IMG/VR virus record: IMGVR_UViG_3300021376_000041
Location: 6,914-70,913 of that record
Strand: one strand, 5' to 3'
Length of the DNA: 64,000 bases
Source of the DNA: a virus
Of this stretch, positions 2,704 through 38,504 are shown piece after piece; positions within the stretch are counted from its first letter, which is position 1, and each line of letters begins with the position of its first letter. The notes beneath the pieces are model-generated. The model saw only the letters and a list, made by a program, of their open reading frames with translations, was not told the origin of the DNA and made no database searches. The translations under genes were made by a program, and so were the position numbers.

Positions 2704-3312
2704 ATGTATTTAACAGCAATCGATACGGAAACAACTGGTCTTGATTTAAAAAGGCATCAAATAATTCAACTTGGCGTTATTAGATATGAATTAGAAGATT
2801 GTGGTAATTTAAAAATGCTTGAAAAGTATCAATACAATATAAAACCAAGTAATATTAAAGCAGCTTCACCAGAAGCACTTAAGATTAATGGTTATAATGA
2901 ACAAGCGTGGCGTGATGCAATTCCATTTATAGACTGCTTTCCATTATTAAACGATATTTTTACTAGATCAGAAGCATTAATTGGTCAAAACCTTATTTTT
3001 GATTTACGCTTTATAGCTAAAGAATATTGGCGATATGGTTTAATAATGCCAAAGATTCCTAAGTATATTGATACAAAATATATGGGGCAACAATTAGTAA
3101 ATGAAGGCAAAATTAAATCTTGCTCTATGGATAACATGTGCAAACACTTTAGCATCAAGTATAGTGGCAGAGCGCACACTGCCTTGACTGACTGCGAGAG
3201 AACGGTTACAGTGTGGGAACGCCTGATGAAGCATGTGGAAACCAGATATTTTACCTTTGAGGAGCCTTATGATGCATTCAAGAAAAATACAAATGCCAGA
3301 AAAGTTATCTAG
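2704..3312 (+). CDS. DEDDh 3'-5' exonuclease (DNA polymerase III epsilon-like)
   Basis: ExoI IDTETTGL, ExoII QNLIFD, ExoIII HTALTD. Confidence 0.92.
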   Translation: MYLTAIDTETTGLDLKRHQIIQLGVIRYELEDCGNLKMLEKYQYNIKPSNIKAASPEALKINGYNEQAWRDAIPFIDCFPLLNDIFTRSEALIGQNLIFDLRFIAKEYWRYGLIMPKIPKYIDTKYMGQQLVNEGKIKSCSMDNMCKHFSIKYSGRAHTALTDCERTVTVWERLMKHVETRYFTFEEPYDAFKKNTNARKVI

Positions 3313-6604: not shown

Positions 6605-7446
6605 TGGAACAATTTGATGAATTAAGAAGTTATATTCGTAACGTATTATTAAAAATACGCGACAACCAAAAAAAAGTTCTAAAGGCAGATTTAAAAGAAG
6701 AACGCGCATTGCGTAGATTGGTACGCAAAATGCTTGTTGAAATTAAAGAAACATCACCGCACGAATTAACTGGTATTAACGTACTGGAAAAATTGCTTGG
6801 CAACATCATGCCAGTTATTGAAACTGGATATAAGAGTTTAACTACTGATCCATCACAACGTGAATCATATGGTGCCCATATTTTGAGAGCAGTACAAAAT
6901 CTTCTTTCGATACCATCCATGTATTTTGATCTTGATAGTAAGGGCGACATGAAAACTGATGGCGAGGCAGTTGAAGAGCGGCCTACAGATATACAAAAAG
7001 AAGAAGTAAAAATTAAAATGAGCAAGAAGGACAAAGAAGAGCAAGAAAAGTTCATAGATATTAATAAAGATAGTAAAGAAACAGAAGAAGAAACACCAGA
7101 TCCTAGCGATCCAATGAGTGCTTTCCAAGATATTGAAGGTGAAGATCACACTGGTAGATCATTTGCATTAGAAACATTTAAAAAAGTGCAAAAACAAGTT
7201 CTTGAATCTTACTCAACATTATCAAATCCAAAAGATAGAGAAGTATTTGAAGAATATCTAATTACAAATATTAAGTTGTATCTAAGACGTTTCGAAGAAG
7301 AACTTTCTGATAAACCCCCGGTTCCAACAACTCCATCATATGAAGCTGCTGTTTCAAAGATAGATTCACAAACAGCTGGTGGAGCGACAGCAGCTGGTGG
7401 ATTATCGGGAGTTGAAGAACCAGAACAATCAACAGTAGGAGCATAG
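6604..7446 (+). CDS. acidic hypothetical protein, probably head-associated
   Basis: 280 aa; repeated LRxxIRxxL.E helices; coupled start. Confidence 0.7.
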   Translation: MEQFDELRSYIRNVLLKIRDNQKKVLKADLKEERALRRLVRKMLVEIKETSPHELTGINVLEKLLGNIMPVIETGYKSLTTDPSQRESYGAHILRAVQNLLSIPSMYFDLDSKGDMKTDGEAVEERPTDIQKEEVKIKMSKKDKEEQEKFIDINKDSKETEEETPDPSDPMSAFQDIEGEDHTGRSFALETFKKVQKQVLESYSTLSNPKDREVFEEYLITNIKLYLRRFEEELSDKPPVPTTPSYEAAVSKIDSQTAGGATAAGGLSGVEEPEQSTVGA

Positions 7447-8060: not shown

Positions 8061-8469
8061 TATAAAAAATACTAAAAATAGAACTTGTAAAGATTATTCT
8101 ATTCTTAATGTTTTAAGATCACAAAAAAAAAGTAATGAATATTTTGAGACTATGTTAGCTAATATAGATTTAGAAGATATAATAGCATTAAAATTAGAAT
8201 TAGCTTATAGATCTGTAGGAGTAGCATTATACGGTGCGCCACTTTGGAGAAATCTAAATCATATTATAAAAGAAGCATTATTAAAATATGTTGTTTCAAT
8301 TAGTAAATCTAAAGGTGAAGCTGCTAGGTATGTTGGTGTAGATAGTATAAAGTTTTTATTTTTATTAAAAAAATACAATATAGATTATTTCTTTCTTAAA
8401 GGAAAAATAAACAATGCTGATAACAGAAACACAATTAAAGAAAATATATCCGAAAGTAAAACAGGATAA
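8035..8469 (+). CDS. Fis-like helix-turn-helix protein
   Basis: IIKEALL...SKGEAARYVGV...LLKKYNI resembles the Fis HTH. Confidence 0.6.
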   Translation: MIASEIRANIKNTKNRTCKDYSILNVLRSQKKSNEYFETMLANIDLEDIIALKLELAYRSVGVALYGAPLWRNLNHIIKEALLKYVVSISKSKGEAARYVGVDSIKFLFLLKKYNIDYFFLKGKINNADNRNTIKENISESKTG

Positions 8470-8986
8470 ATTACAGTTATATGTTAAAGCTTTTAATAAT
8501 GTTTTTCCTGCCTATGGTATCAATACCGCTAGAAGGATTGCTGCATTTCTTGGACAAGTTGGCGTTGAAAGCGGACAACTCAGATACGACAAAGAATTAG
8601 CATCTAAATGGAATAAAAAAAATGTAAATGATATTAATGAACCAATAGGTAGTTTATATGAAGGAAGAAAAAATTTAGGTAATAAATTAGCTGGTGATGG
8701 TCCAAAGTTTATTGGTCGAGGTATATTACAACTAACTGGTAGAGCTAATTATGAAAACATGTCTAAAACTCTTGGAATAGATCTTATAAATAATCCAGAG
8801 TTAGCATGCGATCCAGAAGTTAGCACCAAGATAGCTTGTGAATATTTTAAAAAACGTGGCTTATTGGAACTGGCAGATGAATGGAATTTAGATGAAATAA
8901 CTCGTAGAGTAAATGGTAATGCTAAATTACATCACGATATAAGAGTAAAGTATAGCGAAGAAGCATTAAAAACTTTAAATAAATAG
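8414..8986 (+). CDS. glycoside hydrolase family 19 endolysin
   Basis: RIAAFLGQVGVESG, YEGRKNLGN, GDG..FIGRGILQLTGRANY, ITRRVNG. Confidence 0.92.
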   Translation: MLITETQLKKIYPKVKQDKLQLYVKAFNNVFPAYGINTARRIAAFLGQVGVESGQLRYDKELASKWNKKNVNDINEPIGSLYEGRKNLGNKLAGDGPKFIGRGILQLTGRANYENMSKTLGIDLINNPELACDPEVSTKIACEYFKKRGLLELADEWNLDEITRRVNGNAKLHHDIRVKYSEEALKTLNK

Positions 8987-9274
8987 TTTAATATTAGGTA
9001 GTAGGCTTAACAGTAGTCAACTTTAATGAGTGAAACAAAATCCTATGTATTCTAATTGTAAGTCCGTTAACAGCGGGAGAATAAGCGAAAGCGCCGTTCA
9101 CAGCACTATAAGTAACCCCGAAGTTAATTATGGTGATCAGGCTAACCTCAATACAATATTTATTAGAGAAGTTGCATAGGTTGGGGAATAGGAAAACAAA
9201 GTGTAGTCCTGAAAGACTACGAAGTATATTTTAAATCTTTGGTTCTTTGGTGTAATAACACGCCTATTATTAAA
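8987..9274 (+). ncRNA. structured ncRNA with 23S rRNA GTPase-associated-centre (H43/H44) mimic ends
   Basis: ORF-free gap; terminal stem TTTAATATTAGG/CCTATTATTAAA; GTAGGCTTAACAGTAGTCAAC (H43-like) and GTGTAATAAC (H44-like); nested stems and GAAA-type hairpins. Confidence 0.75.
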
Positions 9275-9281
9275 TGTTCTT

Positions 9282-9557
9282 ATGGCAAAAAAAACTAAAA
9301 TATCACATTGGAATTATAGGGTTTTTAAAAATAGTAATTATGCTGGTGAAGACCAGTATGGTATTATAGAAGTATATTATGATAATAAAGGTAAACCATC
9401 CGGTTATACTGATTATCATGTACCTTGGGGAGAAAATATTAAAGATTTAAAATGGGAATTATCGTCCATGTTGAAAGCATGCAGAGAGCCAATATTAACT
9501 GAAGAAGATTTCTTAAAAAAGAGAAAAAAGAATGTCAAATCAAAAATGGAAAAATGA
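9282..9557 (+). CDS. conserved phage hypothetical protein
   Basis: WNYRV...YGIIEVYYD..G.P motif common in phages. Confidence 0.75.
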   Translation: MAKKTKISHWNYRVFKNSNYAGEDQYGIIEVYYDNKGKPSGYTDYHVPWGENIKDLKWELSSMLKACREPILTEEDFLKKRKKNVKSKMEK

Positions 9558-12203: not shown

Positions 12204-12773
12204 ATGCAAACAAACACCACCAACAACTCTAATGATACTAGGAACATTGCTGATCGCTATAAGTTTGATCGTCTGGTTAAATGGACCACGGAAATGATTA
12301 AAACCGATCTCCAGCAAAAGGCTTTTCCTTTTGCTGTGATGATGGAAAATCTTGTTGGAGATTTTAATCTTTCTTCTGTTCTTCGTTCCTGTAACGCAAT
12401 GAATGGTCGTGAAATGTTCTATCTTGGTCGTAAGCAATATGATCGCCGTGGAACAGTTGGCACACATCATTATACAGATATTATTAATCTAAAGGATCGT
12501 GAAGAGCTAATAAAACTTAAGGATCGTTATACTTTTGTCGCTTTGGAAAATAGCGTTCCACAAGCAGAAAGTATGTATAATTTTGTATGGCCTGATAATC
12601 CGCTAATTATTATTGGAGAAGAGGGTATTGGGATTACTCAAGAAACTTTATCCCTGTGTGATAGGTTTGTTTATATTCCACAATATGGCAGCGTCAGAAG
12701 TATGAATGCAGCAGTTGCTGGTTCAATTGCAATGAATGATTTCTTAATGAAATATCATAAAAACAATGCATAA
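12204..12773 (+). CDS. SpoU/TrmH-family (SPOUT) RNA methyltransferase
   Basis: N.SSVLRSCNAM, IIIGEEGIGI, IPQYGSVRSMNAAVAGSI SPOUT motifs. Confidence 0.92.
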   Translation: MQTNTTNNSNDTRNIADRYKFDRLVKWTTEMIKTDLQQKAFPFAVMMENLVGDFNLSSVLRSCNAMNGREMFYLGRKQYDRRGTVGTHHYTDIINLKDREELIKLKDRYTFVALENSVPQAESMYNFVWPDNPLIIIGEEGIGITQETLSLCDRFVYIPQYGSVRSMNAAVAGSIAMNDFLMKYHKNNA

Positions 12774-12791
12774 AATACTATTTATACTGTT

Positions 12792-14213
12792 ATGATTAGA
12801 ATAAAAATATTAAATGAATCAAAACAGTTATTAAATGAAGTTTCTTTTGAAGATGCTAAGAAAACTCTTGATGGTAGTAAATTTGTTAAGAGATTAAAAG
12901 CACTATCCAATATAATTGGACCATTGACAGGTTTAGAAATTTTTAAAAACAATCCTGAACATGAAAATTTTATACTTTATATAAAAAGAGACATTGAAGA
13001 TACTATTCCATATGACATTCCAGATAACAGTAAAGGATTGGCATTATTGTGGTTAAAACAAAAATTAATAGAAGATCCAAAAGGATATTTTAAACATCAA
13101 CAAGCCGATACTAGAAACGCAATTGAAAGATTTTTTCAATATAACGGCTCTCAGCAAATGCCTAACTTTATTAATCCTGTAGAAAAAAAGGATCTTAATA
13201 AAGTAGAATCTCTTGATGAATTGCAAAAGTTAGTAAAAGAGGCGACTCCATTATATAATAAATATCAAGAAGAAAGACAGAATAAAGATGTCGAATCAGG
13301 AACAGAAAAAATATACGATGGTCCTGAATGGACTATATTAGCAGCACACAATAAGGGTGCAGCGTGTGAATTAGGTAAAGGCACAAGCTGGTGTACCGCT
13401 GCGCCCGGTCTTCATTATTTTAATGAATATTATCAAGAAGGTAGTCCATTATTTATCTTTATTAGTAAAGAAAACCCTATTGAGAAATATCAATTCAGTT
13501 ACTCTTCTCAACAGTTTATGGACAAAGAAGATCGTTCTATATATAAAGAAGATATATTTTATAAATTAAATAAGCTTTTGATTAGTACCCCCGGAATTAA
13601 AGAAAAATATCCTATTTTAAAAGACTTTATATATCATAAAGTGGGCGATAGGATGGTGCAGATTAAAAAAACCAATGATGTTACATATTACATGGTAAAC
13701 AAAAGAACTATAATGACTAAAGATAGTGAAGGACTTATTAATCATTTTGACTATGACAATCAACTTCATAGAGAAAACGGTCCAGCTGTTTATAATAAAT
13801 ATGAATATCAAAAAGATCCTGAAAACGCACCCCAAACTTGGGCAAAGCATGGGAGTACCTTTAGAATCGATGGTCCAGCAGAAATAGATAAAGAAGGTTA
13901 TAAATATTGGTTAATATATGGTAAATATATAAATATAGATCCAAAATATAAATACGGTGGTCCATCAATAATTACGCCAGACGGTAAACAAATATGGCGT
14001 ATCGGAGTTGAGCGGTTTACTAACGAACAAGATTTCATTAAGTATATTGAAGATTTTATAAAAAATGAAGACAAGTTAGATGAATATGAAACTTATCCAA
14101 TAAAAAATTATTTACAGAAACTTAATGATTATAGGCAAGAATATTTAAAATCTAATTCTAAAAAATTAAAAGAAAATAAGAAATTTGTTATAAGAATTCT
14201 AAGGAATACATAA
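12792..14213 (+). CDS. large-phage protein with WCT motif domain and HRxDGPA repeats
   Basis: LGKGTSWCTAAPG...KYQF...QFMD; LHRENGPAV / FRIDGPAEI / KYGGPSII repeats; late motif upstream. Confidence 0.65.
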   Translation: MIRIKILNESKQLLNEVSFEDAKKTLDGSKFVKRLKALSNIIGPLTGLEIFKNNPEHENFILYIKRDIEDTIPYDIPDNSKGLALLWLKQKLIEDPKGYFKHQQADTRNAIERFFQYNGSQQMPNFINPVEKKDLNKVESLDELQKLVKEATPLYNKYQEERQNKDVESGTEKIYDGPEWTILAAHNKGAACELGKGTSWCTAAPGLHYFNEYYQEGSPLFIFISKENPIEKYQFSYSSQQFMDKEDRSIYKEDIFYKLNKLLISTPGIKEKYPILKDFIYHKVGDRMVQIKKTNDVTYYMVNKRTIMTKDSEGLINHFDYDNQLHRENGPAVYNKYEYQKDPENAPQTWAKHGSTFRIDGPAEIDKEGYKYWLIYGKYINIDPKYKYGGPSIITPDGKQIWRIGVERFTNEQDFIKYIEDFIKNEDKLDEYETYPIKNYLQKLNDYRQEYLKSNSKKLKENKKFVIRILRNT

Positions 14214-15526
14214 TGTCAAAAAAAACCTATATTCTAGATACGAATGTGTTGTTGAGCGATGCAGAAGCGATTAACTCGTATAAGAATAATGACGTTGGGA
14301 TACCCTTAAAGGTATTAGAAGAAGTAGATAAGCATAAGAAGCGTCAAGATGGTGTTGGCGCTAACGCTAGACAGTTTATACGTCTATTAGACGCGCTTCG
14401 TGAAAAGGGCGACATAGTTGAGGGTATTAAACTTGGAAAGGGTAGAGGCTCCATTAGGACGCTTAAATGCGATTTAAGCCTGTTGCCAGATGCTTATGAT
14501 AGGCAACATCCCGATAATCAAATACTTGCTTGTGCATTAACAGAGATTAAAGAAGTTGGTGACAACAAAAATATCATTCTTGTCTCTCAAGATATTAACA
14601 TGAGAGTTAAGTGCGACTCTGTTGGTGTTAAAACAGATGATTATATTCCTAATCAAATAGTAGAAAGGGCAGAAGAAGTATTTACTGGCTTCACACAATA
14701 TCTTGTAGATGATGCTCTTATAGATCGTTTCTATGCTGGTGAAAAGATTATGCTAGAGCAAAAGGATATTAAGTTATATCCTAACCAGTTTGTTATGTTA
14801 GTATCAAACGCTAATGACAAAAAAACAGCTTTAGCAAGATTTAAAGCATACAATCATCCACTAAGCAAGACAAAAGAATATAAAAATGGCGTTTGGGGTA
14901 TACATGCCAAGAATAAAGAGCAGCAATTTGCCCTTGAATTATTAATGGACCCAGATGTAAAGATTGTTTCTATCATTGGTCGTGCTGGTGGAGGTAAAAC
15001 TCTTAATGCTTTGGCAGCTGGTCTTCAACAAATTCTTGATGATAAAGTATATAAGAAACTAATTGTTTCCCGACCAGTACAGCCAATGGGTAAAGATATC
15101 GGCTATCTTCCCGGTACTCTAGAAGAAAAGATGTCCCCTTGGTTAGCACCTGTACAAGATAATTTAGAGTTCCTTATGGGTGACGATAAAGCACATTTAC
15201 AGATGCTAATGGAAGCTGGTACTATTGAAATGGAAGCCCTCACATACATTCGTGGTCGTTCCATCGCTAATGCATTTATTATTATTGATGAATCACAAAA
15301 CTTAACATCCCATGAATTAAAGACTATTATTACTCGCGTTGGCGAAGGAACAAAGATTATATTAACAGGAGATATCGAACAGATAGACAATGCTTATGTA
15401 GATGCAACAACTAACGGTCTTACATACGCTGTTGAAAAATTAAAAGACTATGAAATTTCTGGTCATATTACCTTGAAAAAAGGTGAAAGATCTGCTGTCG
15501 CAAGCCTCGCCGCATCAGTATTATAG
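14213..15526 (+). CDS. phoH: PIN-domain PhoH-family ATPase (PhoH2/YlaK-like)
   Basis: N-terminal ILDTNVLL PIN domain; GRAGGGKT Walker A, GYLPG, YIRGRS, DESQN, GDIEQID. Confidence 0.95.
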   Translation: MSKKTYILDTNVLLSDAEAINSYKNNDVGIPLKVLEEVDKHKKRQDGVGANARQFIRLLDALREKGDIVEGIKLGKGRGSIRTLKCDLSLLPDAYDRQHPDNQILACALTEIKEVGDNKNIILVSQDINMRVKCDSVGVKTDDYIPNQIVERAEEVFTGFTQYLVDDALIDRFYAGEKIMLEQKDIKLYPNQFVMLVSNANDKKTALARFKAYNHPLSKTKEYKNGVWGIHAKNKEQQFALELLMDPDVKIVSIIGRAGGGKTLNALAAGLQQILDDKVYKKLIVSRPVQPMGKDIGYLPGTLEEKMSPWLAPVQDNLEFLMGDDKAHLQMLMEAGTIEMEALTYIRGRSIANAFIIIDESQNLTSHELKTIITRVGEGTKIILTGDIEQIDNAYVDATTNGLTYAVEKLKDYEISGHITLKKGERSAVASLAASVL

Positions 15527-15536
15527 AAAGAAAAAT

Positions 15537-15794
15537 ATGGAAATCATTAATCAAGATATTTTAAAACCAGTAGAAAAAATTAATCCCATGAAAGAATGGC
15601 TTGTAGATTATGTCGGCAACAAACTACAACCAGCTAATAACGAAGTTACAGTAGCAATGCTAGTAGAAGCAATGGCAGAAGAATTCCCAGAATTTGTTAT
15701 GGCAGTTGCAGAAGAAAACTTTATTCGTGGTTATCAACAAGCATTCAAAGATTTAGAAGCAAATGGTGAAATAACTCCAACAAAAAATGAGTAG
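15537..15794 (+). CDS. conserved hypothetical protein
   Basis: ATG 15537 (MEIINQ...); EFPEFVMAVAEENFIRGYQQA. Confidence 0.7.
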   Translation: MEIINQDILKPVEKINPMKEWLVDYVGNKLQPANNEVTVAMLVEAMAEEFPEFVMAVAEENFIRGYQQAFKDLEANGEITPTKNE

Positions 15795-16467
15795 TGTAAA
15801 TTATATAAAAAAATCTTCTGCTAAGAATGCTGCTCAAGTAAGAGAATATAGCTTATTTGGCAGCATTCTTGTTATTGTTGCTAACCCACTTCCTGAAGAA
15901 ATTAATTTAAAAAGTGTTTTAAAACGTATAGAAAAAAATATACCAAAACATTTATTTATTAATTTAGATATCATTTATTTTGGTGATTTTAAAGAATTAA
16001 AAGCTCGACAAGTTTCTTCTGCTTATATGGACGGAGGAATATATTTAACCAATCAACAAGTATCTGATGAAGAAATATATAATTCAATTGTACATGAGTT
16101 GGCACATAGTATAGAAAAAAACTTTGAAAATGATTTATACGGAGATGATAAAGTATTAGAAGAGTTTTTAAATAAACGTAAAAAATTAAAAAGCATTTTA
16201 GAATCTAATGGTCTTTATTGTGCTGATTCTCTATATTTAAGACCAGAATTTACAAGAGATTTTGATGATTTTCTGTTTAAAAAAGTTGGCTACGATAAAT
16301 TAACATTATTAATTTCAAATCTGTTTATTTCTCCCTATTCGCCAACATCATTAAGAGAATATTTTGCTTCTGGATTTGAGTATTATTATTGCGGAGACAA
16401 TCCAGAATATATATCTCAAATATCTCCAAAGCTTTATAAAAAAATTATTTACTTGACAAAGAAGTAA
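15787..16467 (+). CDS. HEXXH zinc metallopeptidase-like protein
   Basis: IVHELAHSIE plus downstream SLREYFASGFE third-ligand motif. Confidence 0.7.
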   Translation: MSSVNYIKKSSAKNAAQVREYSLFGSILVIVANPLPEEINLKSVLKRIEKNIPKHLFINLDIIYFGDFKELKARQVSSAYMDGGIYLTNQQVSDEEIYNSIVHELAHSIEKNFENDLYGDDKVLEEFLNKRKKLKSILESNGLYCADSLYLRPEFTRDFDDFLFKKVGYDKLTLLISNLFISPYSPTSLREYFASGFEYYYCGDNPEYISQISPKLYKKIIYLTKK

Positions 16468-16504: not shown

Positions 16505-17278
16505 ATGTCTAATCATATATCTTTTTCTGCTTTAAAGCTTTGGAATGACTGCCCTTTTAAATATAAATTAACATACATTGATAATGTTCAAAAGTTTCGT
16601 GGTAGCGAATATACAATCTTTGGTACTTCGCTGCATGAAGCTTGTGAAAAAAAGCTTCTAGACAATAATATTAATGAAGTAGAATATTTTTTAAATAAGT
16701 TTGATGAAGAGCTAAAAAATATTCCTTCTGATGTTCAACTAGATCCCAATCTTTTAACTGAAATGAAAGAGCAAGGTAAGACACTTGCATCTATGGCATT
16801 GCCTGCCCTTAAAGAAAAGTTTGGTAATTTTAAAGTCTTAGCAGCAGAAGAGGACATCTTTGAAACCATTAAAAAAATTCCTGAATTGAATTATAATTTT
16901 AAAGGTTATATTGATTTAATTATTCAAACAGAAGATAATAAGATACATATCTTAGATTGGAAAACATGTGCTTGGGGTTGGGATGCTAAAAAGAAAAGTG
17001 ATCCAATGATTACTTACCAGTTAACTTTTTATAAATATTTCTATTCTCAAAAGCATAATATAGATCCAAAAAATATTGAAACATATTTTGCGCTTCTTAA
17101 GAGAACTGCTAAGAAAGACAATGTAGAAATTTTCCGCGTAACAAGCGGAGACAAAAAAACAGAAAATGCATTTAACTTATTAACAAAAGCACTTTATAGT
17201 ATTAATAAAGGTTTTTTTCCAAAGAACCGTCTTGCTTGCAAATATTGCGAGTATAATAAAACAAAGGATTGTCCCTAG
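16505..17278 (+). CDS. PD-(D/E)xK (RecB/Cas4-like) exonuclease with Fe-S cysteines
   Basis: SFS...CP, GTSLH, GYIDL, ILDWKT, QLTFY, C-terminal CKYC...CP. Confidence 0.88.
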   Translation: MSNHISFSALKLWNDCPFKYKLTYIDNVQKFRGSEYTIFGTSLHEACEKKLLDNNINEVEYFLNKFDEELKNIPSDVQLDPNLLTEMKEQGKTLASMALPALKEKFGNFKVLAAEEDIFETIKKIPELNYNFKGYIDLIIQTEDNKIHILDWKTCAWGWDAKKKSDPMITYQLTFYKYFYSQKHNIDPKNIETYFALLKRTAKKDNVEIFRVTSGDKKTENAFNLLTKALYSINKGFFPKNRLACKYCEYNKTKDCP

Positions 17279-18279
17279 TGAAAACAGCAATTATTACAGG
17301 TATTACTGGGCAAGATGGTAGCTATCTTGCAGAACTGCTTTTAGAAAAAAATTATAAAGTAGTTGGCCTTGTTCGTAGAAGTGCGATGGAAGACAAAAAG
17401 CTTTATAATATCCAACATCTTTTAAATAACTCTAATTTAATTATAGAAAATGGTGATTTAACCGATTCTCCATCTTTGTGGAGAGTTATAGGCAGTCATC
17501 AGCCCGATGAGTTTTATAATTTAGCAGCACAAAGTCATGTTGGCGCCTCCTTTACATCCCCAGAAAGTACTTTTCAAATAAATGCAACTGGCGTATTAAA
17601 TTGTTTAGAAGCGATAAGGGTACTTAAACGAAATACAAAGTTTTATCAAGCTTCTACTAGCGAAATGTTTGGCGATAATTCTAGCGCTCCTCAAGGAGAA
17701 GAAACACCCCTTTCTCCAGTTTCTCCATACGCTTGTGCAAAAGTAGCGGCACATCATTTAATAATAAATTATCGTAAAGCATATAATATATTTGCTTGCT
17801 CTGGTGTTCTTTTCAATCATGAAAGCCCAAGGCGTGGCGAACAGTTTGTTACGAGAAAGATCACAAAAGCAGCTGCCAGAATCAAGCTTGGTTTACAAAA
17901 AGAATTACGTCTTGGTAATCTTGAAGCAAAACGAGATTGGGGATATGCAAAAGAATATGTAGAAGGTATGTGGATGATGATGCAGCATCATGCGCCCGAC
18001 GATTACGTTCTAGGCACAGGAAAAACATACACTATTAAACAATTCATTGATTGCATAAGTGAAATAGCTGGTTATAATTTAATGCAATATGTTGTTATTG
18101 ATGATAAATATAAACGTCCTAGCGAGGTTCCGTTATTATTAGCTGATCCAACAAAAGCTAAAAAAGTCTTAGGCTGGGAGCCTAAAACCAATTTAAAACA
18201 ATTAGCAGAATTAATGTATAATTGTGATTTAGAAAAGGAAAAAATCTTAAAGGAGATTTTAGATGAACAAAAAAATTAA
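17278..18279 (+). CDS. gmd: GDP-mannose 4,6-dehydratase
   Basis: ITGITGQDGSYLAE, NLAAQSHV, YQASTSEMFG, SPYACAK, FNHESPRRG, RDWG; GTG start. Confidence 0.96.
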   Translation: MKTAIITGITGQDGSYLAELLLEKNYKVVGLVRRSAMEDKKLYNIQHLLNNSNLIIENGDLTDSPSLWRVIGSHQPDEFYNLAAQSHVGASFTSPESTFQINATGVLNCLEAIRVLKRNTKFYQASTSEMFGDNSSAPQGEETPLSPVSPYACAKVAAHHLIINYRKAYNIFACSGVLFNHESPRRGEQFVTRKITKAAARIKLGLQKELRLGNLEAKRDWGYAKEYVEGMWMMMQHHAPDDYVLGTGKTYTIKQFIDCISEIAGYNLMQYVVIDDKYKRPSEVPLLLADPTKAKKVLGWEPKTNLKQLAELMYNCDLEKEKILKEILDEQKN

Positions 18280-19752
18280 AATATTAACTCTTTCTGACCA
18301 TCCGTTAACCAGCCGGTAACAGCGGATATAAAACTGGGTGAATTGCTGGAAACTTTCATAAATAATTTCGCTACAGCATAGTTGGAAACGACAAGTGCAA
18401 AAGCCAAAAAGAAATTATTGAAACAATCAGCAGCCAAGTGCCTGTCTTGAAAAAGTGGCAAAGGTTCAGAGACTACGGTTAGCCTAAACATTTTATGTAT
18501 GGCAATGATCCGACAGCGCCCAGCACTTTAATAAGTGATGATATAGTCCAACAAAGTGTCACCATCTGGTGTAGGTAGTCAGTCCAACTACATCTTCCAA
18601 GGTCTGTTAAAAACAGGCAAATATCAAATTATTTCTTTAGGTGGTGCCATTAAACATCAAGACTATCGCCCTGTCAAGTTCCATGAATATGGCGATGATT
18701 TCGTGATTATCCCAGTTAATGGCTATGGAACGCCAGAATTAATTCGTACAATTTTAATGAAAGAAAAGCCTGATATCATTTGGATGATGACTGATCCAAG
18801 ATTTTATACGTGGTTATGGAATATGGAACAAGAGATTCGTCCTAATGTTCCAATTGTTTATTATCATGTGTGGGACAACTATCCATATCCTAAATTTAAT
18901 CGTGCATATTATCAATCGAATGACATGATAGCTACGATTTCTAAACTTACAAGCGATATTGTTAGGACAGTAGCACCAGAAGTCGAAGAACGTTATGTGC
19001 CACATGCGGTAAATCCAGATTTATTTAAGATTTTAGATGAAAAAGAATATGCACATTTACGTAATCCAAATAAAACACTTTTCTTCTGGACTAACAGAAA
19101 TGCCAGACGTAAAATGAGCGGCAGCGTTGTATGGTGGTATAAAGAATTTCTTGATAAAGTTGGACACGATAAAGCATTTTTGCTAATGCATACAGATCCT
19201 AAAGATCCTCATGGACAAGATCTTGTAGCAATTGCAGAAGAATTAGGCTTGACTAAAGAAAATTTTGCAATTTCTGCTGGTAAAGTTTCACAAGCGGAAA
19301 TGACTAAATTTTATAATGCTGCCGATTGTACAATAAACATCAGCGATGCAGAAGGCTTTGGTTTGTCATGTTTAGAAAGTCTTTCTTGCGGTACTCCTGT
19401 TATAGCTAATAAAACTGGTGGAATGCAAGATCAATTAACAGATGGTGTAGATACATATGGTGTTCTTATAGAACCTGCTAGTCGTGCAGTTATTGGCTCT
19501 CAAGAGGTACCATATATCTATGAAGATCGTGTTAGTAACAAAGATGTAGTTGAAGCGATGATTAAAATTCATAATATGTCACGCGAAGAACGTAAAGCGC
19601 TTGGTCGTAAGGGACATGACAATGTGCAAAAGAATTTTAATTTTGCAACTTTCCAAGAAACTTGGGATAAACTATTAACAGAAGTTCACGAAAAATGCGG
19701 TTCTTGGGAAACACGTAAAAATTATAAATCCCTAAGCGTAAAGGAATACTAA
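18263..19752 (+). CDS. GT4-family glycosyltransferase, intron-split: join(18263..18305,18557..19752), 412 aa
   Basis: AGGAG RBS; splicing restores KIKILTLSDHP-L-SPSGVG; NRNARRK and EGFGLSCLESLSCGTPVI GT4 motifs. Confidence 0.9.
18306..18556 (+). ncRNA. group I self-splicing intron (IA-like), 251 nt, no homing endonuclease ORF
   Basis: P1 AUCCGU/GCGGAU with U18305.G18322; core elements AATTGCTGGAAA, AATCAGCAG, TTCAGAGACTA, GATATAGTC; P3 CTGGGTG/CGCCCAG; P10 GGTAACA/TGTCACC; terminal G18556. Confidence 0.93.
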
Positions 19753-32915: not shown

Positions 32916-35900
32916 ATGAGTAATTTTGAAGAAGTGAAATATCCACCAACCCCAAATTATGAAACACACTTCTTAAACAAAGAATCAGTTTATTTAGATG
33001 TGTCAAGAGAAGAATTGCTTCTTTCATCTAGTTTTAGCGTTAATACCACCAACAAAGCACCACAGAATACCAAAGTCACAATAATAGAAGAGGGTTTGGG
33101 TGTTAACGCACTTTGGAATTATGTAAAATATAATAACAAAAGTGTATATTTTTTAAGAGAAAATTTAACACCATTAAATGGCATAAAACAATCGATGCCA
33201 TTAGCTATAGATTCTGCATATCAACAAAATTTACAATCTCCAAAAATTGATTGGAGAGAACAAAAGCCAAATACAGTTTATTTAGACACATATAATGCTA
33301 AATTCTGTACTCATATAGAATTACCATATGAAAAAGTAAACGGTAAAGAGGATTTAAAAGAAAAAATTAAAGAAGGCTATTATAAAGGCGTTGCTTTAAT
33401 ATTAAAGGAAACTGCTAAACAATATGATATAGTTTATATTAATCAGCTAACTGATAGCTATTATAAATTTGCTGAAGCGGAAGAATATTTTTTTCCACTT
33501 AGGGAATGTTCTACATTACGAGTTTTAGTTACTATATCATCAAAATATTTAAATTCTGGATTTATAAATAATAATAAAGTAAATAAAAAAGGTATTTATG
33601 AAGAAAAAGAATTATTAGATCTTTTTAATTCACAGCTTTTTGATGAAGATACGTTTGGTTCTTCCGAAGGATCTGGACCCACTTCAGATCAAGACCAAAT
33701 TAGTATATATGAAACTTTAGAATATAATAATTATGATTTATTTTCTAGACATATTAGCGAAATAAAAAATATATTAATCCAAAATCAAGTTATTTATGCC
33801 ACTGGTCAATGGGATATAGTACCCGATGGTGTAAATTTAAACTTTTTAACTGAAATAGCAAATATAGAATTATTTTTTAATAAAATAAATAAATTTTTAG
33901 ATAGTAATATATCTAAGAAGCCAATTGATCAAGCTTTTAATATCAATAATCTTGTTAGTTCCATAGTTGGAGAGCCTTGGTCTGGTAATTTAAAATTTAT
34001 ATTAAACAAAAACGACACTAAAATAGTTGATATACAATTTTTTGATAATTTTAATAATAAAATTCCTTTAAATATTGGCTATTATTCTATTTTGCAAGAT
34101 GAAACAATATTAAATAAAACAACAATTAATTATTTAAAAAAAATTAAAAAACCAACCACTTTAGATGATATTTTACTTGGCATAAGTGGCAGCATTATGC
34201 CTTCTTTGCAAAGTGCTGCTTCCAGTTTAACGCTAGCAGTTACAAATCCAGAACAGGCATTAAAGAATTTAGCTGCCGACATACAAAATGCTCCTGAAAA
34301 TATAGCGAATAATTTAGCCAACGCAGCAGATAATGTAAGTTCTGGTATTGACAATGCAGCACAAAATATTCAACAACTAATACCAGATGAAATTTTAAAA
34401 AAGTTTTTAATTAATTATCACGAACCATCAATAACAGATATTATTAGAAGGCCGATAGATTTAGCACAGTGCGTGCAATCAAATTATAATTTATTAAAAG
34501 AAATAGAAAATAATATAAAACCAGCAGCTTTAAGACAATTTGAATCTCAAATACAAGAGTATCAAAAAAGAAAAAAAGAATTTGATGGTAGCACGTTTGA
34601 TAAAATATTATCTGGCGATATAAGTAAAACCTTTGATCCAAGATTAAGAAAATTATTTGGATTAGATCCAATAGATTTTTCTAATCCCATACGAGGATTA
34701 AATGAAATATTAGGAATTATCAATTTATTTGATATACAAAGATGGCTATTGGAATCATTAAAGTGCGGTACTCTTGATTTTGACCCACAACAATTTAATA
34801 AATTGTTAGAACAATATGGTAATGTAAAAAAAGCTCTAGATGCGTTAGCTGTAATCTCTGTATGTAATCCAAATTTTACTAATGTTTTAAAATTATATAC
34901 TTCTTTTACGCTGCCTTTATTACCTACTACTAATCCTAATCGCTCTTTAATTGAACAGCTTATAAAATTAGTTGTTCAAGTAACAAATGATATTGTTGTT
35001 TTGACTATTAGACAGTTATTAACAAATTCATTTAAAAATTGCGCAGATGATAAGAGAAGAAATAATCTTCCTAATTCATTAAGCAATAACATAGATCCAA
35101 ACGCTGGCTTTAACGATCCTGCTATTGATGATTTATTAAATGATATATCAGGTGGCATATATGATGAAAATGGAGAGATCATTCCAGAAGCTAGAGATGC
35201 CGCTAAACAAAAATTGAAACAATTATTAGATGAGTTAAGTAATTGTTTATCTACTAGAGAATTGTGTGCATTATTGACTGGTAAAACAGTTAACGATTCT
35301 GTTATAGATGCGATAGTATCATTTATAAAAAGAAAATATAACAATCCAAACGGTATTACTAATTTAGCAAATAAATTTAATAATAGAGATTATATTATAA
35401 ATTTCTTTTTAGTCCTTGGTCGTAATCTTGGCGATGATTTATTAATTTGTGACGATATTTTAAATCAACCAGAAGATTTCAATAAGAATCCTCTTTGCGA
35501 TGATGGAACAATAAATAATCTACGTAAAAAATTATTGGGCGATAAAGGATTAACTCCTGATTTAATAGATGATTTATTAAAAGATATAAATGATAAAAAA
35601 GCTAAAAATCTTGATGATTTACTTAAGTTTTTAGATTCAGACGATCCATTTAAGTATGATAATATACCATCAGTATTATGCAAAGATGGTATACCTCCCG
35701 CAATTAAAGTATCTCCGTCTATAGATAGTTTTAAGGGTTTGTTAAATGCTCTTTTTAGAGATGTATATGACAACTTTGATAGAGAATCAACTGAATGGTA
35801 TAAAACCACTTATTCTACTAAGGGTGGTCCTAAAACAATGTCTTTTGATGAAAGCGGCAAGCTAGTATTTGATACTAGTTCCGCTGGTGAAGCTACTGAT

Positions 35901-38504
35901 TCTGATAAAAGCGGTTTACAGGAAATTATACCTAATTTTCTTTTTGATCAAAGTATAACAACGGTTACAAATAATTCTTTGTATGATGATAAAAGCTATT
36001 CTTATAAAGTATTTTTAAATGGTAAAGCACAAAGAGACTTAGACGTTACAATACTAGAATCTAGTATAAAAACCGATATAGAAACGGCTGAAAAAAGCTT
36101 AAGAGATTTTTTGTCCGATTTTAATATTGCTTATAATCTGTATATAACTACTTTGGGAATACAGATTGGTTTTGAAGTTGGTACAGCTATTCAATCTAAT
36201 AATTTTCAAAGAGCATCTAGCAACTCTGGAGTTTTGCAAACTTTAGAAGCAAATATTAAAGGTTTAAGTCCAACATTTTTTAATGAATTTTTAAAATTTA
36301 TTAGATTACAAGACATGTTTATGGTTAATAGTATATCTGACATAGACGAGCTAAAAGTTCTATTTCCAGATAATAAATTATTAGCTAATCATTTAGTTAT
36401 TTCTGATTCTGGTATTGCTGTGTATATAACAGTTTGTGAATATTTAATTAAACATAAAAATGATTTAAGCAATATGCTTAACCAAATAGCACAAAGGCTT
36501 CGTCCCGCTTCTGAGAATACTTTAATACCTAATGAAAATGTCGCAAGTTATAATGATTTATTACAACAATTAGAATTTGCTATTAGTCAATACAATCAAA
36601 TAAAAAATGCTTATGAATTATTATTAAATTCTTCAATCAATTATCCTTCTTATGATTTAAATATGTCATTTGGCTTATCGTCATATAGCGGAATAAAAAA
36701 TTATGATAATGAATCAATTTATAATATTTCTTCTACGCTAATTAAAAAAAATAATAAACAATATATAAAATTTGGTAGTAAAAATAAAGTAAAAGACTCA
36801 ATAAAAAATTATATTTTAAATGATTTAAAAATAGACAAAGACGGAATAAACAAAAATAATATTTTTAATGAATATATAAAATCTAAAAACGATTTATACA
36901 ACTCTTATATTGATATTAATTCAGATATTGTATTTGATAATAATAAATTTTCTTCTTTAGATAAATTTATTTTTAATAAACTAGTAAATAATATTAAATC
37001 ACCAAATAATTTATTTGATAACTGTAGAATTATTAAACAAGAATTTAAGCCAACTCCTGATAGCGAAGTGGAAATTAAAGAACATAAAGTACCTTATACT
37101 AAATTGTTTGGCGATAAATTAGTGATTAAACAAACCCCAGAGCAAAAAGCTTGTAATGTTCGTCCACATTATTTGGATATTGATTCTATAAAAAGCGATA
37201 TTATTAATAACAAAGAAAAAAGCTTGTGTTCTATAGAAGAAGCTAAAAATGAAAATATTATTAATAATATCCCTATTAACTCCTCAGAGATGCAAAATTT
37301 AGAAACTTCTGAAACGCAAAATATAATTTTAAATGGAGTTTTTAAATTAGCGATACGTACATATTTGCATGACATTTTGTTAAGAGGAATAAATTTATTT
37401 TCTTATTATGATCCACAAAGTTTAAGAAAAGATGAATCCTTTATTAGCTTTATGGCTTATTTAGTAGAATCTGAAATGAGGGGTGTGGATAACACTTTCT
37501 TTACACTTATGATGAGTGGTATAAACCGCGCAGTAAATCCTGACAGCTCTAGAACACAACAAGAAATAGATTTCTTATCTAGGGACATGTTTAAAGACAC
37601 GGTAGCAGTAGAATTGCAAGAAGTAGTATTGCCAAAATTAGCCAAAAGACTAAATGAAGATACTAATAAATATTTAATACAAAGTCAATATGCTTCGCTA
37701 TTAGAACCATTATTAACTAGTGATAGTAATAAAACTCTTAAATTAGTAAATGTGGTTAAAGATGCTAAAGATTTATTTGCAGAAAATATTTTGTTTCAAA
37801 AACAAGATGGAGTTTATTTATTGGTTGATAATAATAAAGCCATAAAAATATCAGATGGTACTTATGAACAATTCGCCAATTCTGTGGATTATGAATTGTT
37901 GTTTGAATATTTATTTCCACAAACGCAATATTTAAGCTTTATGTTTATTACAAGCGCGTTGAGCACTTCTACAAGAAGAAGTATACTGGATATTTTTAAA
38001 GATACAAAAGCCTGTATTAGAAATCTAGGCAAGATAGCTCAAACAAACGGTGCTAATATCACCCCAGACTTAACTAATGCTCAAGATATTATTAACAACG
38101 ATACCGATGATTTATTAAAAAAGTATCTTTTTGAGACATTATTAAAAACTCCATTCCTTATTTTTAAAGGTTTTGCTGAAATGTCAGAGCCTAATTTATT
38201 AATAAGTTCAAGCATTTATAAAACTTTGAGCCTTTTTGTTCCTGAAACTCCATCTTTTATTATTCCTCCTACTTCCGGTATATTATTTGCCACAGGCATA
38301 TCATTTGTAAATCCTATAGTTTATTTCTTATATTTAGGAGGCTTCTTCTGGTATGAAGATAAATCTAATAATTCTGATATAGCTAAAAAATCTATGTTAT
38401 TAAAATTTGCTGAAGGCTCTGGCGAAGATATGAATTGTGAAAGTATTACCAATAATAACAACGACTTAGTTAAATTAAATAATGAAGGTATATATGAAAT
38501 ATAA
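32916..38504 (+). CDS. very large virion protein (1862 aa)
   Basis: between spike and gp25 genes; SH3-like N-terminus, helical core, hydrophobic C-terminus. Confidence 0.6.
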   Translation: MSNFEEVKYPPTPNYETHFLNKESVYLDVSREELLLSSSFSVNTTNKAPQNTKVTIIEEGLGVNALWNYVKYNNKSVYFLRENLTPLNGIKQSMPLAIDSAYQQNLQSPKIDWREQKPNTVYLDTYNAKFCTHIELPYEKVNGKEDLKEKIKEGYYKGVALILKETAKQYDIVYINQLTDSYYKFAEAEEYFFPLRECSTLRVLVTISSKYLNSGFINNNKVNKKGIYEEKELLDLFNSQLFDEDTFGSSEGSGPTSDQDQISIYETLEYNNYDLFSRHISEIKNILIQNQVIYATGQWDIVPDGVNLNFLTEIANIELFFNKINKFLDSNISKKPIDQAFNINNLVSSIVGEPWSGNLKFILNKNDTKIVDIQFFDNFNNKIPLNIGYYSILQDETILNKTTINYLKKIKKPTTLDDILLGISGSIMPSLQSAASSLTLAVTNPEQALKNLAADIQNAPENIANNLANAADNVSSGIDNAAQNIQQLIPDEILKKFLINYHEPSITDIIRRPIDLAQCVQSNYNLLKEIENNIKPAALRQFESQIQEYQKRKKEFDGSTFDKILSGDISKTFDPRLRKLFGLDPIDFSNPIRGLNEILGIINLFDIQRWLLESLKCGTLDFDPQQFNKLLEQYGNVKKALDALAVISVCNPNFTNVLKLYTSFTLPLLPTTNPNRSLIEQLIKLVVQVTNDIVVLTIRQLLTNSFKNCADDKRRNNLPNSLSNNIDPNAGFNDPAIDDLLNDISGGIYDENGEIIPEARDAAKQKLKQLLDELSNCLSTRELCALLTGKTVNDSVIDAIVSFIKRKYNNPNGITNLANKFNNRDYIINFFLVLGRNLGDDLLICDDILNQPEDFNKNPLCDDGTINNLRKKLLGDKGLTPDLIDDLLKDINDKKAKNLDDLLKFLDSDDPFKYDNIPSVLCKDGIPPAIKVSPSIDSFKGLLNALFRDVYDNFDRESTEWYKTTYSTKGGPKTMSFDESGKLVFDTSSAGEATDSDKSGLQEIIPNFLFDQSITTVTNNSLYDDKSYSYKVFLNGKAQRDLDVTILESSIKTDIETAEKSLRDFLSDFNIAYNLYITTLGIQIGFEVGTAIQSNNFQRASSNSGVLQTLEANIKGLSPTFFNEFLKFIRLQDMFMVNSISDIDELKVLFPDNKLLANHLVISDSGIAVYITVCEYLIKHKNDLSNMLNQIAQRLRPASENTLIPNENVASYNDLLQQLEFAISQYNQIKNAYELLLNSSINYPSYDLNMSFGLSSYSGIKNYDNESIYNISSTLIKKNNKQYIKFGSKNKVKDSIKNYILNDLKIDKDGINKNNIFNEYIKSKNDLYNSYIDINSDIVFDNNKFSSLDKFIFNKLVNNIKSPNNLFDNCRIIKQEFKPTPDSEVEIKEHKVPYTKLFGDKLVIKQTPEQKACNVRPHYLDIDSIKSDIINNKEKSLCSIEEAKNENIINNIPINSSEMQNLETSETQNIILNGVFKLAIRTYLHDILLRGINLFSYYDPQSLRKDESFISFMAYLVESEMRGVDNTFFTLMMSGINRAVNPDSSRTQQEIDFLSRDMFKDTVAVELQEVVLPKLAKRLNEDTNKYLIQSQYASLLEPLLTSDSNKTLKLVNVVKDAKDLFAENILFQKQDGVYLLVDNNKAIKISDGTYEQFANSVDYELLFEYLFPQTQYLSFMFITSALSTSTRRSILDIFKDTKACIRNLGKIAQTNGANITPDLTNAQDIINNDTDDLLKKYLFETLLKTPFLIFKGFAEMSEPNLLISSSIYKTLSLFVPETPSFIIPPTSGILFATGISFVNPIVYFLYLGGFFWYEDKSNNSDIAKKSMLLKFAEGSGEDMNCESITNNNNDLVKLNNEGIYEI
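37687..37719 (+). repeat. 33-bp exact repeat, copy 2
   Basis: identical to 29481-29513; encodes YASLLEPLLT in both genes. Confidence 0.9.

Follow-up and report, generated by a model that had tools for sequence, protein, structure and literature searches.

What might a phage do with a piece of the ribosome's own RNA, encoded outside any ribosomal RNA (rRNA) gene? The question is raised by a 288-nucleotide (nt) gap between protein-coding genes, at positions 8987-9274 (+ strand) of a 64,000-nt stretch of viral DNA. The stretch, hereafter called the window, covers positions 6,914 to 70,913 of IMG/VR record IMGVR_UViG_3300021376_000041; the analysed source is a viral fragment of 70.9 kb, estimated to be 36% complete, in which the element occurs once. 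An earlier note on this DNA had proposed that the gap encodes an RNA imitating the GTPase-associated centre (GAC) of 23S rRNA, which in bacteria is the binding site of ribosomal protein uL11 and of thiostrepton and is contacted by the translational GTPases. By comparison with relatives, we show that 8987-9274 belongs, as a diverged member, to a large family of putative phage RNA genes, and that the two ends of each member are predicted to rebuild the 58-nt GAC. Our best explanation as a whole, a GAC-copy RNA that is read most likely by host uL11, has in our estimate a probability of about 0.5.

How far does the window itself resemble the GAC? Direct reading of the gap confirms what the earlier note had described, an ORF-free stretch after the endolysin gene with a 12-bp closing stem; the gap contains just unsupported open reading frames (ORFs) of 31-49 amino acids. 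Aligned with Escherichia coli 23S rRNA (rrlH, taken from NC_000913.3), positions 9001-9030 share 22 of 29 aligned bases with 1059-1088 across a single 1-nt gap, and positions 9250-9259 agree with 1091-1100 at 8 of 10, the differences being exactly 1092 and 1099. These identity counts uphold the alignment proposed in the note, and the positions that it assigned to A1067, A1070, G1071, U1072, A1095 and the U1092-A1099 pair are all correct in the window. Its statement that helix 43 (H43) still pairs is likewise borne out, one pair being G.U. The extent of its 5' block did not stand: the match to 1059-1088 holds, and the block runs on to 1091 when judged against the GAGUG form that is commoner in bacterial rRNA.

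The window element has all five features of the family: a 5' block, a 3-bp insert helix, a linker, a block corresponding to helix 44 (H44) and a closing helix. The closing helix, P1, corresponds to the top of helix 42 (H42; 23S 1051-1056/1103-1108). It pairs 8987-8998 (+) with 9263-9274 (+) in 12 pairs with one U.U mismatch at 8994/9267, and it is the outermost stem of the minimum free energy (MFE) fold of the element. The H43-like hairpin (23S 1057-1079) occupies 8999-9021 (+), with the stem UAGUAGGC/GUCAAC and a 9-nt loop, UUAACAGUA. A1067 falls at 9009, A1070 at 9012, G1071 at 9013 and U1072 at 9014, and the GGC/GUC pairing consists of C-G, G.U and G-C. The junction UUUAAUGAGU at 9022-9031 (+) corresponds to UUUAAAGAGU of most bacterial rRNAs (23S 1081-1090, with 1080 missing and A1088 at 9029). 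There follows the 5' strand of the insert helix, GAA at 9032-9034 (+), which forms its three pairs with UUC at 9243-9245 (+). The linker UUUG (9246-9249, +) leads to the H44-like hairpin GUGUAAUAAC (23S 1091-1100; U1092 at 9251, A1095 at 9254, A1099 at 9258) and then to ACG (1101-1103), the two together occupying 9250-9262 (+).

Between the strands of the 3-bp helix lies a lineage-specific insert domain of 208 nt (9035-9242, +). It contains a hairpin, UCCGUUAACAGCGGG, at 9063-9077, a motif, GGUUGGGGAAUAGGAAAA, at 9179-9196 and a further hairpin at 9202-9221 (all +). In the window's subfamily the insert folds on its own and is partly conserved, and RNAalifold on nine subfamily members predicts insert helices with compensatory changes (columns 121-127/142-148 and 109-115/213-219). 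A likeness to RNase P, prompted by AGGAAAGUC in the insert, was rejected, since the motifs occur in the wrong order and RNase P models gave no match. A comparison of the insert with the E. coli rrnH operon revealed no likeness (best E value 1.6) and no second rRNA-like piece.

Is the element kept in other phages? Close relatives of the endolysin lie on eight viral contigs, and the element is kept at 8 of 8 loci. For seven of nine homologs, the best match in the whole of 23S rRNA is 1055/1059-1079/1088. Locus L002 (loci carry our own L numbers) has a local 23S score of 43, compared with 21.5 ± 2.2 for shuffled sequences, and L013 a score of 38. The 5' block is nearly rRNA sequence in several of the endolysin-linked relatives. 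The exceptions among the nine are the window and L008, whose best match lies at 2109-2137. This L1-stalk likeness was set aside, as it occurs in one of nine homologs and is explained by the U1067 of L008.

Family members were collected by four pattern scans. The 3' block gave 58 loci in viral contigs, which were sorted by nhmmer, and 29 loci in metagenome contigs. The 5' block, with 1072 and the entire 3' half left free, gave at least 119 stretches in viral contigs, from which 80 loci were taken; applied to genome contigs with rRNA left out, the same block gave 22 stretches. The 80 viral loci comprise 64 distinct members with a 3' block, seven without one within 620 nt and nine duplicates, and none of the 80 continues as rRNA. 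Sixteen of the 22 genome-contig stretches are members, mostly on contigs of metagenome-assembled genomes, and the other six are rRNA variants or chance matches. Across viral, metagenome and genome contigs, at least 112 distinct elements were located.

The family extends to cultured phages, in which BLAST with family members found the element always in unannotated stretches. Carriers include phages of Aeromonas (4_4572), Ralstonia (RSP15), Xanthomonas (XacN1, XbC2 and XaC1), Cronobacter (GAP32), Pectobacterium (CBB), Serratia (BF), Erwinia (several pEa_SNUABM phages), Yersinia (fHe-Yen9-03 and -04), Acinetobacter (ME3) and Pseudomonas (pf16). The family thereby accounts for gaps of 250-600 nt that stand unannotated in published genomes of jumbo phages, and it spans hosts of many phyla. 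By DNA similarity, the window element gave just chance matches of 27-29 nt in 50,697 phage records, and L067 used as a query gave no match. One member, L253, lies in a complete Acidithiobacillus sp. chromosome (1835072-1836096), in a dense array of at least seven transfer RNA (tRNA) genes within 1 kb.

Members share one layout: P1, the H43-like hairpin, the junction UUUAA(A/U)GAGU, the 3-bp insert helix, the linker UUU(G/A)G and the H44-like hairpin, followed by AC(A/G) and the 3' strand of P1. The corresponding rRNA sequence in most bacteria is UUUAAAGAGUGCGUAAUAGCUCAC; this places the 5' block at 1055-1090/1091 and the insert between 1090 and 1091. From GAGU to UUUGG the distance is 214 nt in the window and 23-353 nt across the family. 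Inserts differ completely between subfamilies, and in L165, L160, L157 and L145 they measure 23-41 nt.

Two further variations of this layout were observed. A second subfamily, found in XacN1, GAP32, ME3, RSP15 and a 307-kb contig, has a different, larger insert with conserved motifs of its own, such as GGGGAAGGAC, GGGCGAAGCC and GACCCUUAGAG (L117 875-1235, L118 878-1170, L119 867-1395, L116 830-1459 and L036 265-535). In some members, the 3' strand of H43 is interrupted by an extra hairpin between GCCAUC and CUUUAA (1079/1080). It begins CCGAAAGG or CCGCAAGG, and its position is a second point at which the GAC copy tolerates an insertion (L003 4300-4335, L008 4630-4670, L079 at about 345-380, and L093).

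We assessed conservation in two alignments. A2 holds 28 non-redundant members chosen by their 3' block, with anchored counts. A4 holds the 64 distinct members from the 5'-block scan together with the window (65 rows); its H43 3' strand and junction are fixed by the pattern, so that invariance there is uninformative. In A2, the pairs 1064-1074, 1063-1075 and 1059-1079 are present in 28 of 28 members and 1062-1076 in 25. G1071 and U1072 are invariant (28/28), and the junction, including UUAAA, G1087 and A1088, is invariant or nearly so and was not part of the 3'-block selection. Position 1060.1078 is U.U in 22 of the 28, and 1061.1077 is A.A in 16, U-A in seven and G.A in five; in the 5'-block set, 1060 is U in 64 of 64 and 1078 is U or C in 63 of 64. 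The phage sequences thus retain the non-canonical character of these positions of rRNA H43. UCUUU(G/A)G is invariant in the 28 A2 members, in part because the pattern imposed it, and the UUUGG linker is present too in the independent 5'-block set and in the cultured phages. The same insert point and UUUGG linker occur in all members examined (28 in A2, 64 in the 5'-block set, 16 on genome contigs and 6 in cultured phages).

The helices vary in sequence and remain paired. In A2, P1 has a mean contiguous helix of 9.9 bp, compared with 4.0 ± 0.36 bp when partners are shuffled under the same choice of register, and it is built from 21 different helix sequences. In A4, all ten P1 pairs have changes on both sides and 82% of P1 cells are paired. 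The third pair of the insert helix in A2 is G-C in 12 members, C-G in eight, A-U in six, U.G in one and C.C in one, and in the wider family all three insert-helix pairs vary (GGG/CCC, UGC/GCA, UCC/GGA, AAA/UUU). The 1058-1080 pair in A4 is U-A in 32 rows, G-C in 20 and A-U in 10. Taken over A4, 90.0% of cells are paired, compared with 67.9 ± 0.9% in shuffles (0 of 500 as high), and the covariation score is 0.570, compared with 0.168 ± 0.011 in shuffles (0 of 500) and 0.081-0.169 with slid partners.

Does the covariation reach the tertiary structure? In rRNA, the C.(C-G) and U.(U-A) forms of the base triple 1072.(1092-1099) are, reportedly from the work of Conn, Gutell and Draper, two alternatives that restore each other. 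All three positions were free to vary in A4, where 39 rows have the triple C,C,G, 17 (including the window) U,U,A, eight U,U,G and one C,U,A. Base 1072 is thus the same as base 1092 in 64 of 65 rows, the C,U,A row being the exception, and 1092-1099 is C-G in 39, U-A in 18 and U.G in eight. The pseudo-pair 1072-1099 scores 0.853, compared with 0.507 ± 0.061 in shuffles (0 of 500). The U.(U-A) triple is present as well in all 28 members of A2, a pattern-biased set. Members on genome contigs comprise 12 of the C-type and four of the U-type, and 16 of 16 obey the rule. So do six of six cultured phages, with the C-type in 4_4572, XacN1, GAP32 and pf16 and the U-type in RSP15 and ME3. Both states occur in many subfamilies with different insert helices and lengths.

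The covariation of helices and triple shows that the predicted RNA fold, including a tertiary contact, is under selection. The earlier note had inferred as much from a concerted change of three bases to U9014.(U9251-A9258); the change is present in the window, the triple covaries across relatives, and selection on the tertiary fold in a non-ribosomal phage RNA is borne out by them. Covariation in homologs, the check that the note had suggested, is found in the closing helix, at 1058-1080, in H43 and in the insert helix. Another of its claims survives in part. A1067 and A1095 are kept in the window and are not invariants of the family: position 1067 is A in 49, G in 14 and U in one of the 64 members of the 5'-block set, A1095 is A in 62 of those 64 and in 25 of 28 in A2, and L008 has U1067 and G1095.

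Is the element rRNA, or an RNA already catalogued? A profile built from nine real GACs (E. coli and eight taxa from rRNA-bearing plasmid records) was run against 218 kb and finds the family 5' blocks at E values between 1.6e-7 and about 0.5; the matches almost all cover model positions 5-41, and one is stray. A profile of 24 family 5' blocks finds Priestia 23S rRNA at 2e-7 and E. coli 23S 1055-1088 at 2.8e-6 (10-Mb search space), and the GAP32 copy agrees with Salmonella 23S records at 94.3% over 35 nt. The large subunit (LSU) rRNA model RF02541, by contrast with 13 of 14 controls, had no match at E ≤ 10 anywhere in the 70.9-kb record. A 23S rRNA gene or fragment was rejected on this ground and on the lack of rRNA continuation in the 80 loci. 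The earlier note had also advised a cmscan search of Rfam for LSU rRNA and for GOLLD and ROOL; this was run, and the element matches no Rfam 15 family. Of the 4227 models, which include GOLLD, ROOL, ribosomal-protein leaders, 23S-methyl, RNase P and tmRNA, none had a match in the gap at E ≤ 10 (region 8800-9450), and at 13 other family loci none covered the element in a model-like way at E ≤ 1. The sole overlap at these 13 loci is sraA on the opposite strand of L116, a chance match below threshold (27.3 bits against a gathering threshold of 56, E 0.9); the remaining matches are neighbouring tRNA and transfer-messenger RNA (tmRNA) genes and chance matches.

A number of observations weigh against the interpretation of the element as a GAC copy bound by uL11. 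The best local 23S alignment of the window copy scores 22, compared with 21.1 ± 2.2 for shuffles, and falls outside the GAC region. In a search of the 64-kb window with the nine-GAC profile, the element is absent among the matches at E ≤ 100. The MFE of the whole window element is no better than that of shuffles (z -1.24), its H43 contains a G.U pair, and it has A1068 and C1069 where nine of nine reference rRNAs have G and A. The search patterns imposed much of the invariance (1070-1090 in the 5'-block set, the 3' block in the 3'-block sets), and the rows are related, so that counts are not independent events; the eight U,U,G rows, for example, form one lineage with inserts of 351-353 nt. Position 1067 is A in just 49 of 64 and 21 of 28 members, and 1070, where free to vary in A2, is A in 19 and G in nine. 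The extra helix is predicted to enter at 1090/1091, beside A1088-A1090, where it might interfere with the tertiary fold and the uL11 site. Finally, that the pool of free uL11 is large enough to matter is an assumption.

The likeness of the window copy alone to the GAC is not above chance. By its predicted G.U pair at 1063-1075 and U-A pair at 1060-1078, and by A1068 and C1069, it is a diverged member. A profile of the family without the window ranks 9001-9023 first in the window, though weakly (E 0.02, 11 bits), and the alignment of the window to its own subfamily is unambiguous. We regard the likeness as beyond chance because relatives keep the element and covary, not because of the window copy.

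In what setting is the RNA encoded? At 60 of the 112 located elements, a tRNA or tmRNA gene lies on the same strand within 150 nt. In L003, L005, L006, L007 and L009 (four distinct sequences, L006 being identical to L007), 4-6 arrayed tRNA genes separate the endolysin from the element, which starts 0-2 nt past the last of them, tRNA-Gly. The L033 element is downstream of a tmRNA gene, and that of pf16 lies between tRNA-Asn and tRNA-Pro. In the wider family, tRNA genes or unrelated genes are found downstream of the element. The 64-kb window has no tRNA gene and its element abuts the endolysin stop codon; the RNA is therefore independent of a tRNA array.

We propose the following mode of action. 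The RNA would be made within a rightward transcript and then trimmed to a stable form. With Mg2+ it would adopt the GAC fold, as suggested by the covariation of the triple only. Off the ribosome, it would show the GAC surface to a reader, the likeliest being host uL11 because uL11 binding requires exactly the GAC fold. According to one study, the GAC, the thiostrepton site, folds autonomously and L11 binding needs its tertiary fold (PMC6239185). No Ribosomal_L11 domain is encoded in five of five carrier phage genomes (controls matched 14 of 14), and a uL11 partner would therefore be that of the host. The RNA-uL11 particle might withdraw uL11 from new ribosomes, or it might compete for ligands of the uL11-GAC cleft. 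We infer that the GAC core rather than the insert is the working part, because inserts shrink to 23-41 nt while the core stays and A1095 is kept; in rRNA, according to the same study, A1095 is invariant without a tertiary contact, the reason given being its contacts with cofactors (PMC6239185). A bolder version is possible, and we put it forward tentatively: a free-standing, working GAC copy would be made by phages from a wide range of lineages, among them cultured jumbo phages that infect enterobacteria, Pseudomonas and Acinetobacter; the copy would capture host uL11, and the particle would intercept a factor that reads this site on the ribosome. Candidates for that factor are RelA, a release factor, a translational GTPase or a ribosome-directed defence toxin.

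Could the core instead serve the insert? It might be a folding scaffold, a compact and nuclease-resistant three- or four-way junction that presents the insert and has no ribosomal ligand. The insert of the window's subfamily is indeed structured and partly conserved (hairpin 9063-9077, motif 9179-9196 and the compensatory helices), conserved motifs of other kinds occur in the inserts of other subfamilies, and the GAC is an autonomous folding unit according to the study cited above (PMC6239185). However, the core is constant while inserts differ completely and dwindle to 23-41 nt, the H43 mismatches of rRNA are kept, and A1095, for which that study gives no tertiary contact in rRNA, is A in nearly all members. 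We consider a scaffold unlikely. Another rival is direct docking without uL11, either to tRNA (its elbow, or aminoacyl-tRNA.EF-Tu) or to a translational GTPase, RelA or a release factor. In the ribosome, the GAC contacts the elbow of the A/T-tRNA as well as factors, which there require the sarcin-ricin loop and uL11/bL12 in addition. Docking would link the RNA to the phage tRNA set, in keeping with the 60 of 112 members near a tRNA or tmRNA gene, the five related loci adjoining tRNA-Gly and the pf16 position between two tRNA genes, and ribosomal A1095 contacts cofactors in the account of that study (PMC6239185). Yet the RNA is kept in a window fragment with no tRNA gene, the loop positions 1067-1070 vary and the insert offers no second rRNA-like piece, which makes docking without uL11 rather unlikely in our judgement.

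Hosts of many phyla argue against one specific toxin as the target of a decoy substrate, an RNA that would soak up GAC-attacking thiopeptides or a GAC-directed toxin and so protect ribosomes during infection. One toxin of this kind is Tre23 of Photorhabdus, which ADP-ribosylates H44 of the GAC. We know of no defence system that targets the GAC during phage infection. The exposed A1095 is kept, 1067 is mostly A or G and the GAC is named as the thiostrepton site in PMC6239185; no linked anti-defence gene was noticed, and the SpoU-family methylase at 12204-12773 is TrmH/RlmB-like, unlike the thiostrepton-resistance enzyme. A decoy is decidedly improbable. A different proposal makes the element a cis-acting leader that controls translation of ORF 9282-9557 through protein binding. 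The 3' strand of P1 ends just 5' of the start codon of this ORF, which lies 8 nt on, and an ORF 9282 homolog starts within about 30 nt 3' of the element in 10 related loci, two of which, L033 and L079, are more distant. This arrangement may be plain synteny arising from contig relatedness, because the endolysin and a protease are syntenic too; moreover, tRNA or unrelated genes lie downstream in the wider family, and at loci that have tRNA genes, the 3' end of a tRNA forms the upstream boundary. We hold a leader to be very improbable. There remains chance resemblance, or the decay of captured host 23S rDNA without function. The window copy alone, within chance and with an ordinary MFE, would fit this, but more than 100 distinct sequences are conserved, three helices and a tertiary triple show compensatory changes, and the record has no LSU rRNA match. 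The shared insert point and UUUGG linker point to one origin followed by purifying selection, not to repeated decay. This reading, already contradicted by the conservation and covariation that we find by comparing family members, is barely credible.

The preferred reading, a GAC copy for host uL11, concerns an element closely packed between genes. The GH19-type endolysin gene at 8414-8986 (+) (phrog_181 endolysin, E 7.5e-49; Pfam Glyco_hydro_19, E 4.5e-9) ends with a TAG stop codon at 8984-8986, abutting the start of the element at 8987. Downstream, the gene at 9282-9557 (+) encodes 91 amino acids of unknown function (phrog_21321, E 6.9e-12); it matches no Pfam or NCBIfam family at its cut-off and no ribosomal-protein family, and a search for relatives seeded with it found none. 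G+C content is 39-44% at 9000-9150 and 26-32% in the flanks. A promoter scan gave no promoter-like site on the + strand near the element, and terminator-like calls near it are its own hairpins.

Other features of the window deserve mention. At gathering thresholds, the sole Rfam match in the whole window is a group I intron at 18267-18569 (+) (RF00028, 76 bits, E 1.6e-17, full model). It is located in a block of sugar-modification genes, between a GDP-mannose 4,6-dehydratase ORF (17269-18279) and a glycosyltransferase ORF (18556-19752). The segment 10397-10703 (+), whose G+C content is 50-60% in a genome of about 30% G+C, was considered as a second RNA and rejected, as it is a coding region with no Rfam match; its small lipoprotein-like ORF has a signal peptide ending in FVGC and then an Ala/Thr/Pro-rich tail, and is 81-87% identical in DNA in five related loci. 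RNA-related genes near the element include an RNase T-like exonuclease (2704-3312, +), a TrmH/SpoU-type 2'-O-methyltransferase (12204-12773, +) and a PIN-PhoH fusion (14213-15526, +). The methyltransferase ORF was rejected as a Tsr-like A1067 methylase, its best matches being RlmB/TrmH models (far below cut-offs) and TrmH structures. An ORF of 226 amino acids at 15787-16467 (+) weakly matches Pfam ATLF, the anthrax lethal factor N/C domain family (E 1.7e-6, 28.3 bits, cut-off 27.4), which probably indicates merely a zinc-metallopeptidase-like fold. In the structural region, giant ORFs of 1862 and 2804 amino acids (32916-38504 and 42189-50603, +) adjoin a gp25-like baseplate gene, and their only Pfam match is a Laminin_G_3 domain.

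If the bolder version of our interpretation is correct, the RNA would represent a previously unknown viral way to rewire or shield host translation with an imitation piece of the ribosome. Compensatory change keeps the tertiary triple of the copied centre in a family that extends across more than 100 phage genomes, and the cultured carriers make the question directly testable at the bench. Should uL11 or ligands of the cleft be bound, the RNA would be a tool at the site of GTPase activation, the stringent response and termination. The family also constitutes a natural series of GAC variants, with inserts of 23-353 nt, both triples and loop variants, that is useful for studying RNA folding and uL11 recognition.

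How does the element compare with known systems? It has the same helices in the same order as the bacterial 23S GAC (top of H42, H43 and H44; E. coli 1051-1108). Both have a 9-nt H43 loop with G1071 and A1073, the U1060.U1078 mismatch, the UUUAAAGAGU junction, a 6-nt H44 loop G-U-N-N-N-A and a covarying 1072.(1092-1099) triple. Unlike the GAC, the phage copy is a free-standing gene closed by its own helix, outside any 23S rRNA. It has an extra helix at 1090/1091 that carries a domain of 23-353 nt, its loop tip (1065-1070) is more variable, and the U.(U-A) triple is common. GOLLD, ROOL and the T4 species 1 and 2 RNAs (rnaC and rnaD), which are stable RNAs whose roles are not known, share its location on the tRNA strand, in or beside phage tRNA clusters. 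No Rfam family, GOLLD and ROOL among them, matches the element in the window or at the 13 other loci, and rnaC and rnaD were rejected as relatives because, read by eye only, they contain none of the conserved blocks. Full-text literature searching, judged mainly from titles and the openings of abstracts, found no description of such an RNA. Phages are reported to encode bL12 domains of the same stalk region, in a study whose available portions mention no RNA (PMC6375957). Going by Rfam 15 and these searches, the family appears undescribed.

The closest known principle to the proposed mode of action is that of ribosomal-protein autoregulatory leaders, which are likewise non-ribosomal RNAs that imitate protein-binding sites of rRNA; L10_leader (RF00557) is one example. 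No ribosomal-protein gene lies downstream of the element, and no Rfam leader family matches it at E ≤ 10. Those leaders are cis-acting 5' untranslated regions of cellular ribosomal-protein operons, and they copy a local motif. The phage element instead copies a whole tertiary domain, in phages, beside tRNA or unrelated genes. Imitation of an rRNA site is thus known from ribosomal-protein messenger leaders, whereas a separately encoded whole functional centre of the ribosome appears to be new.

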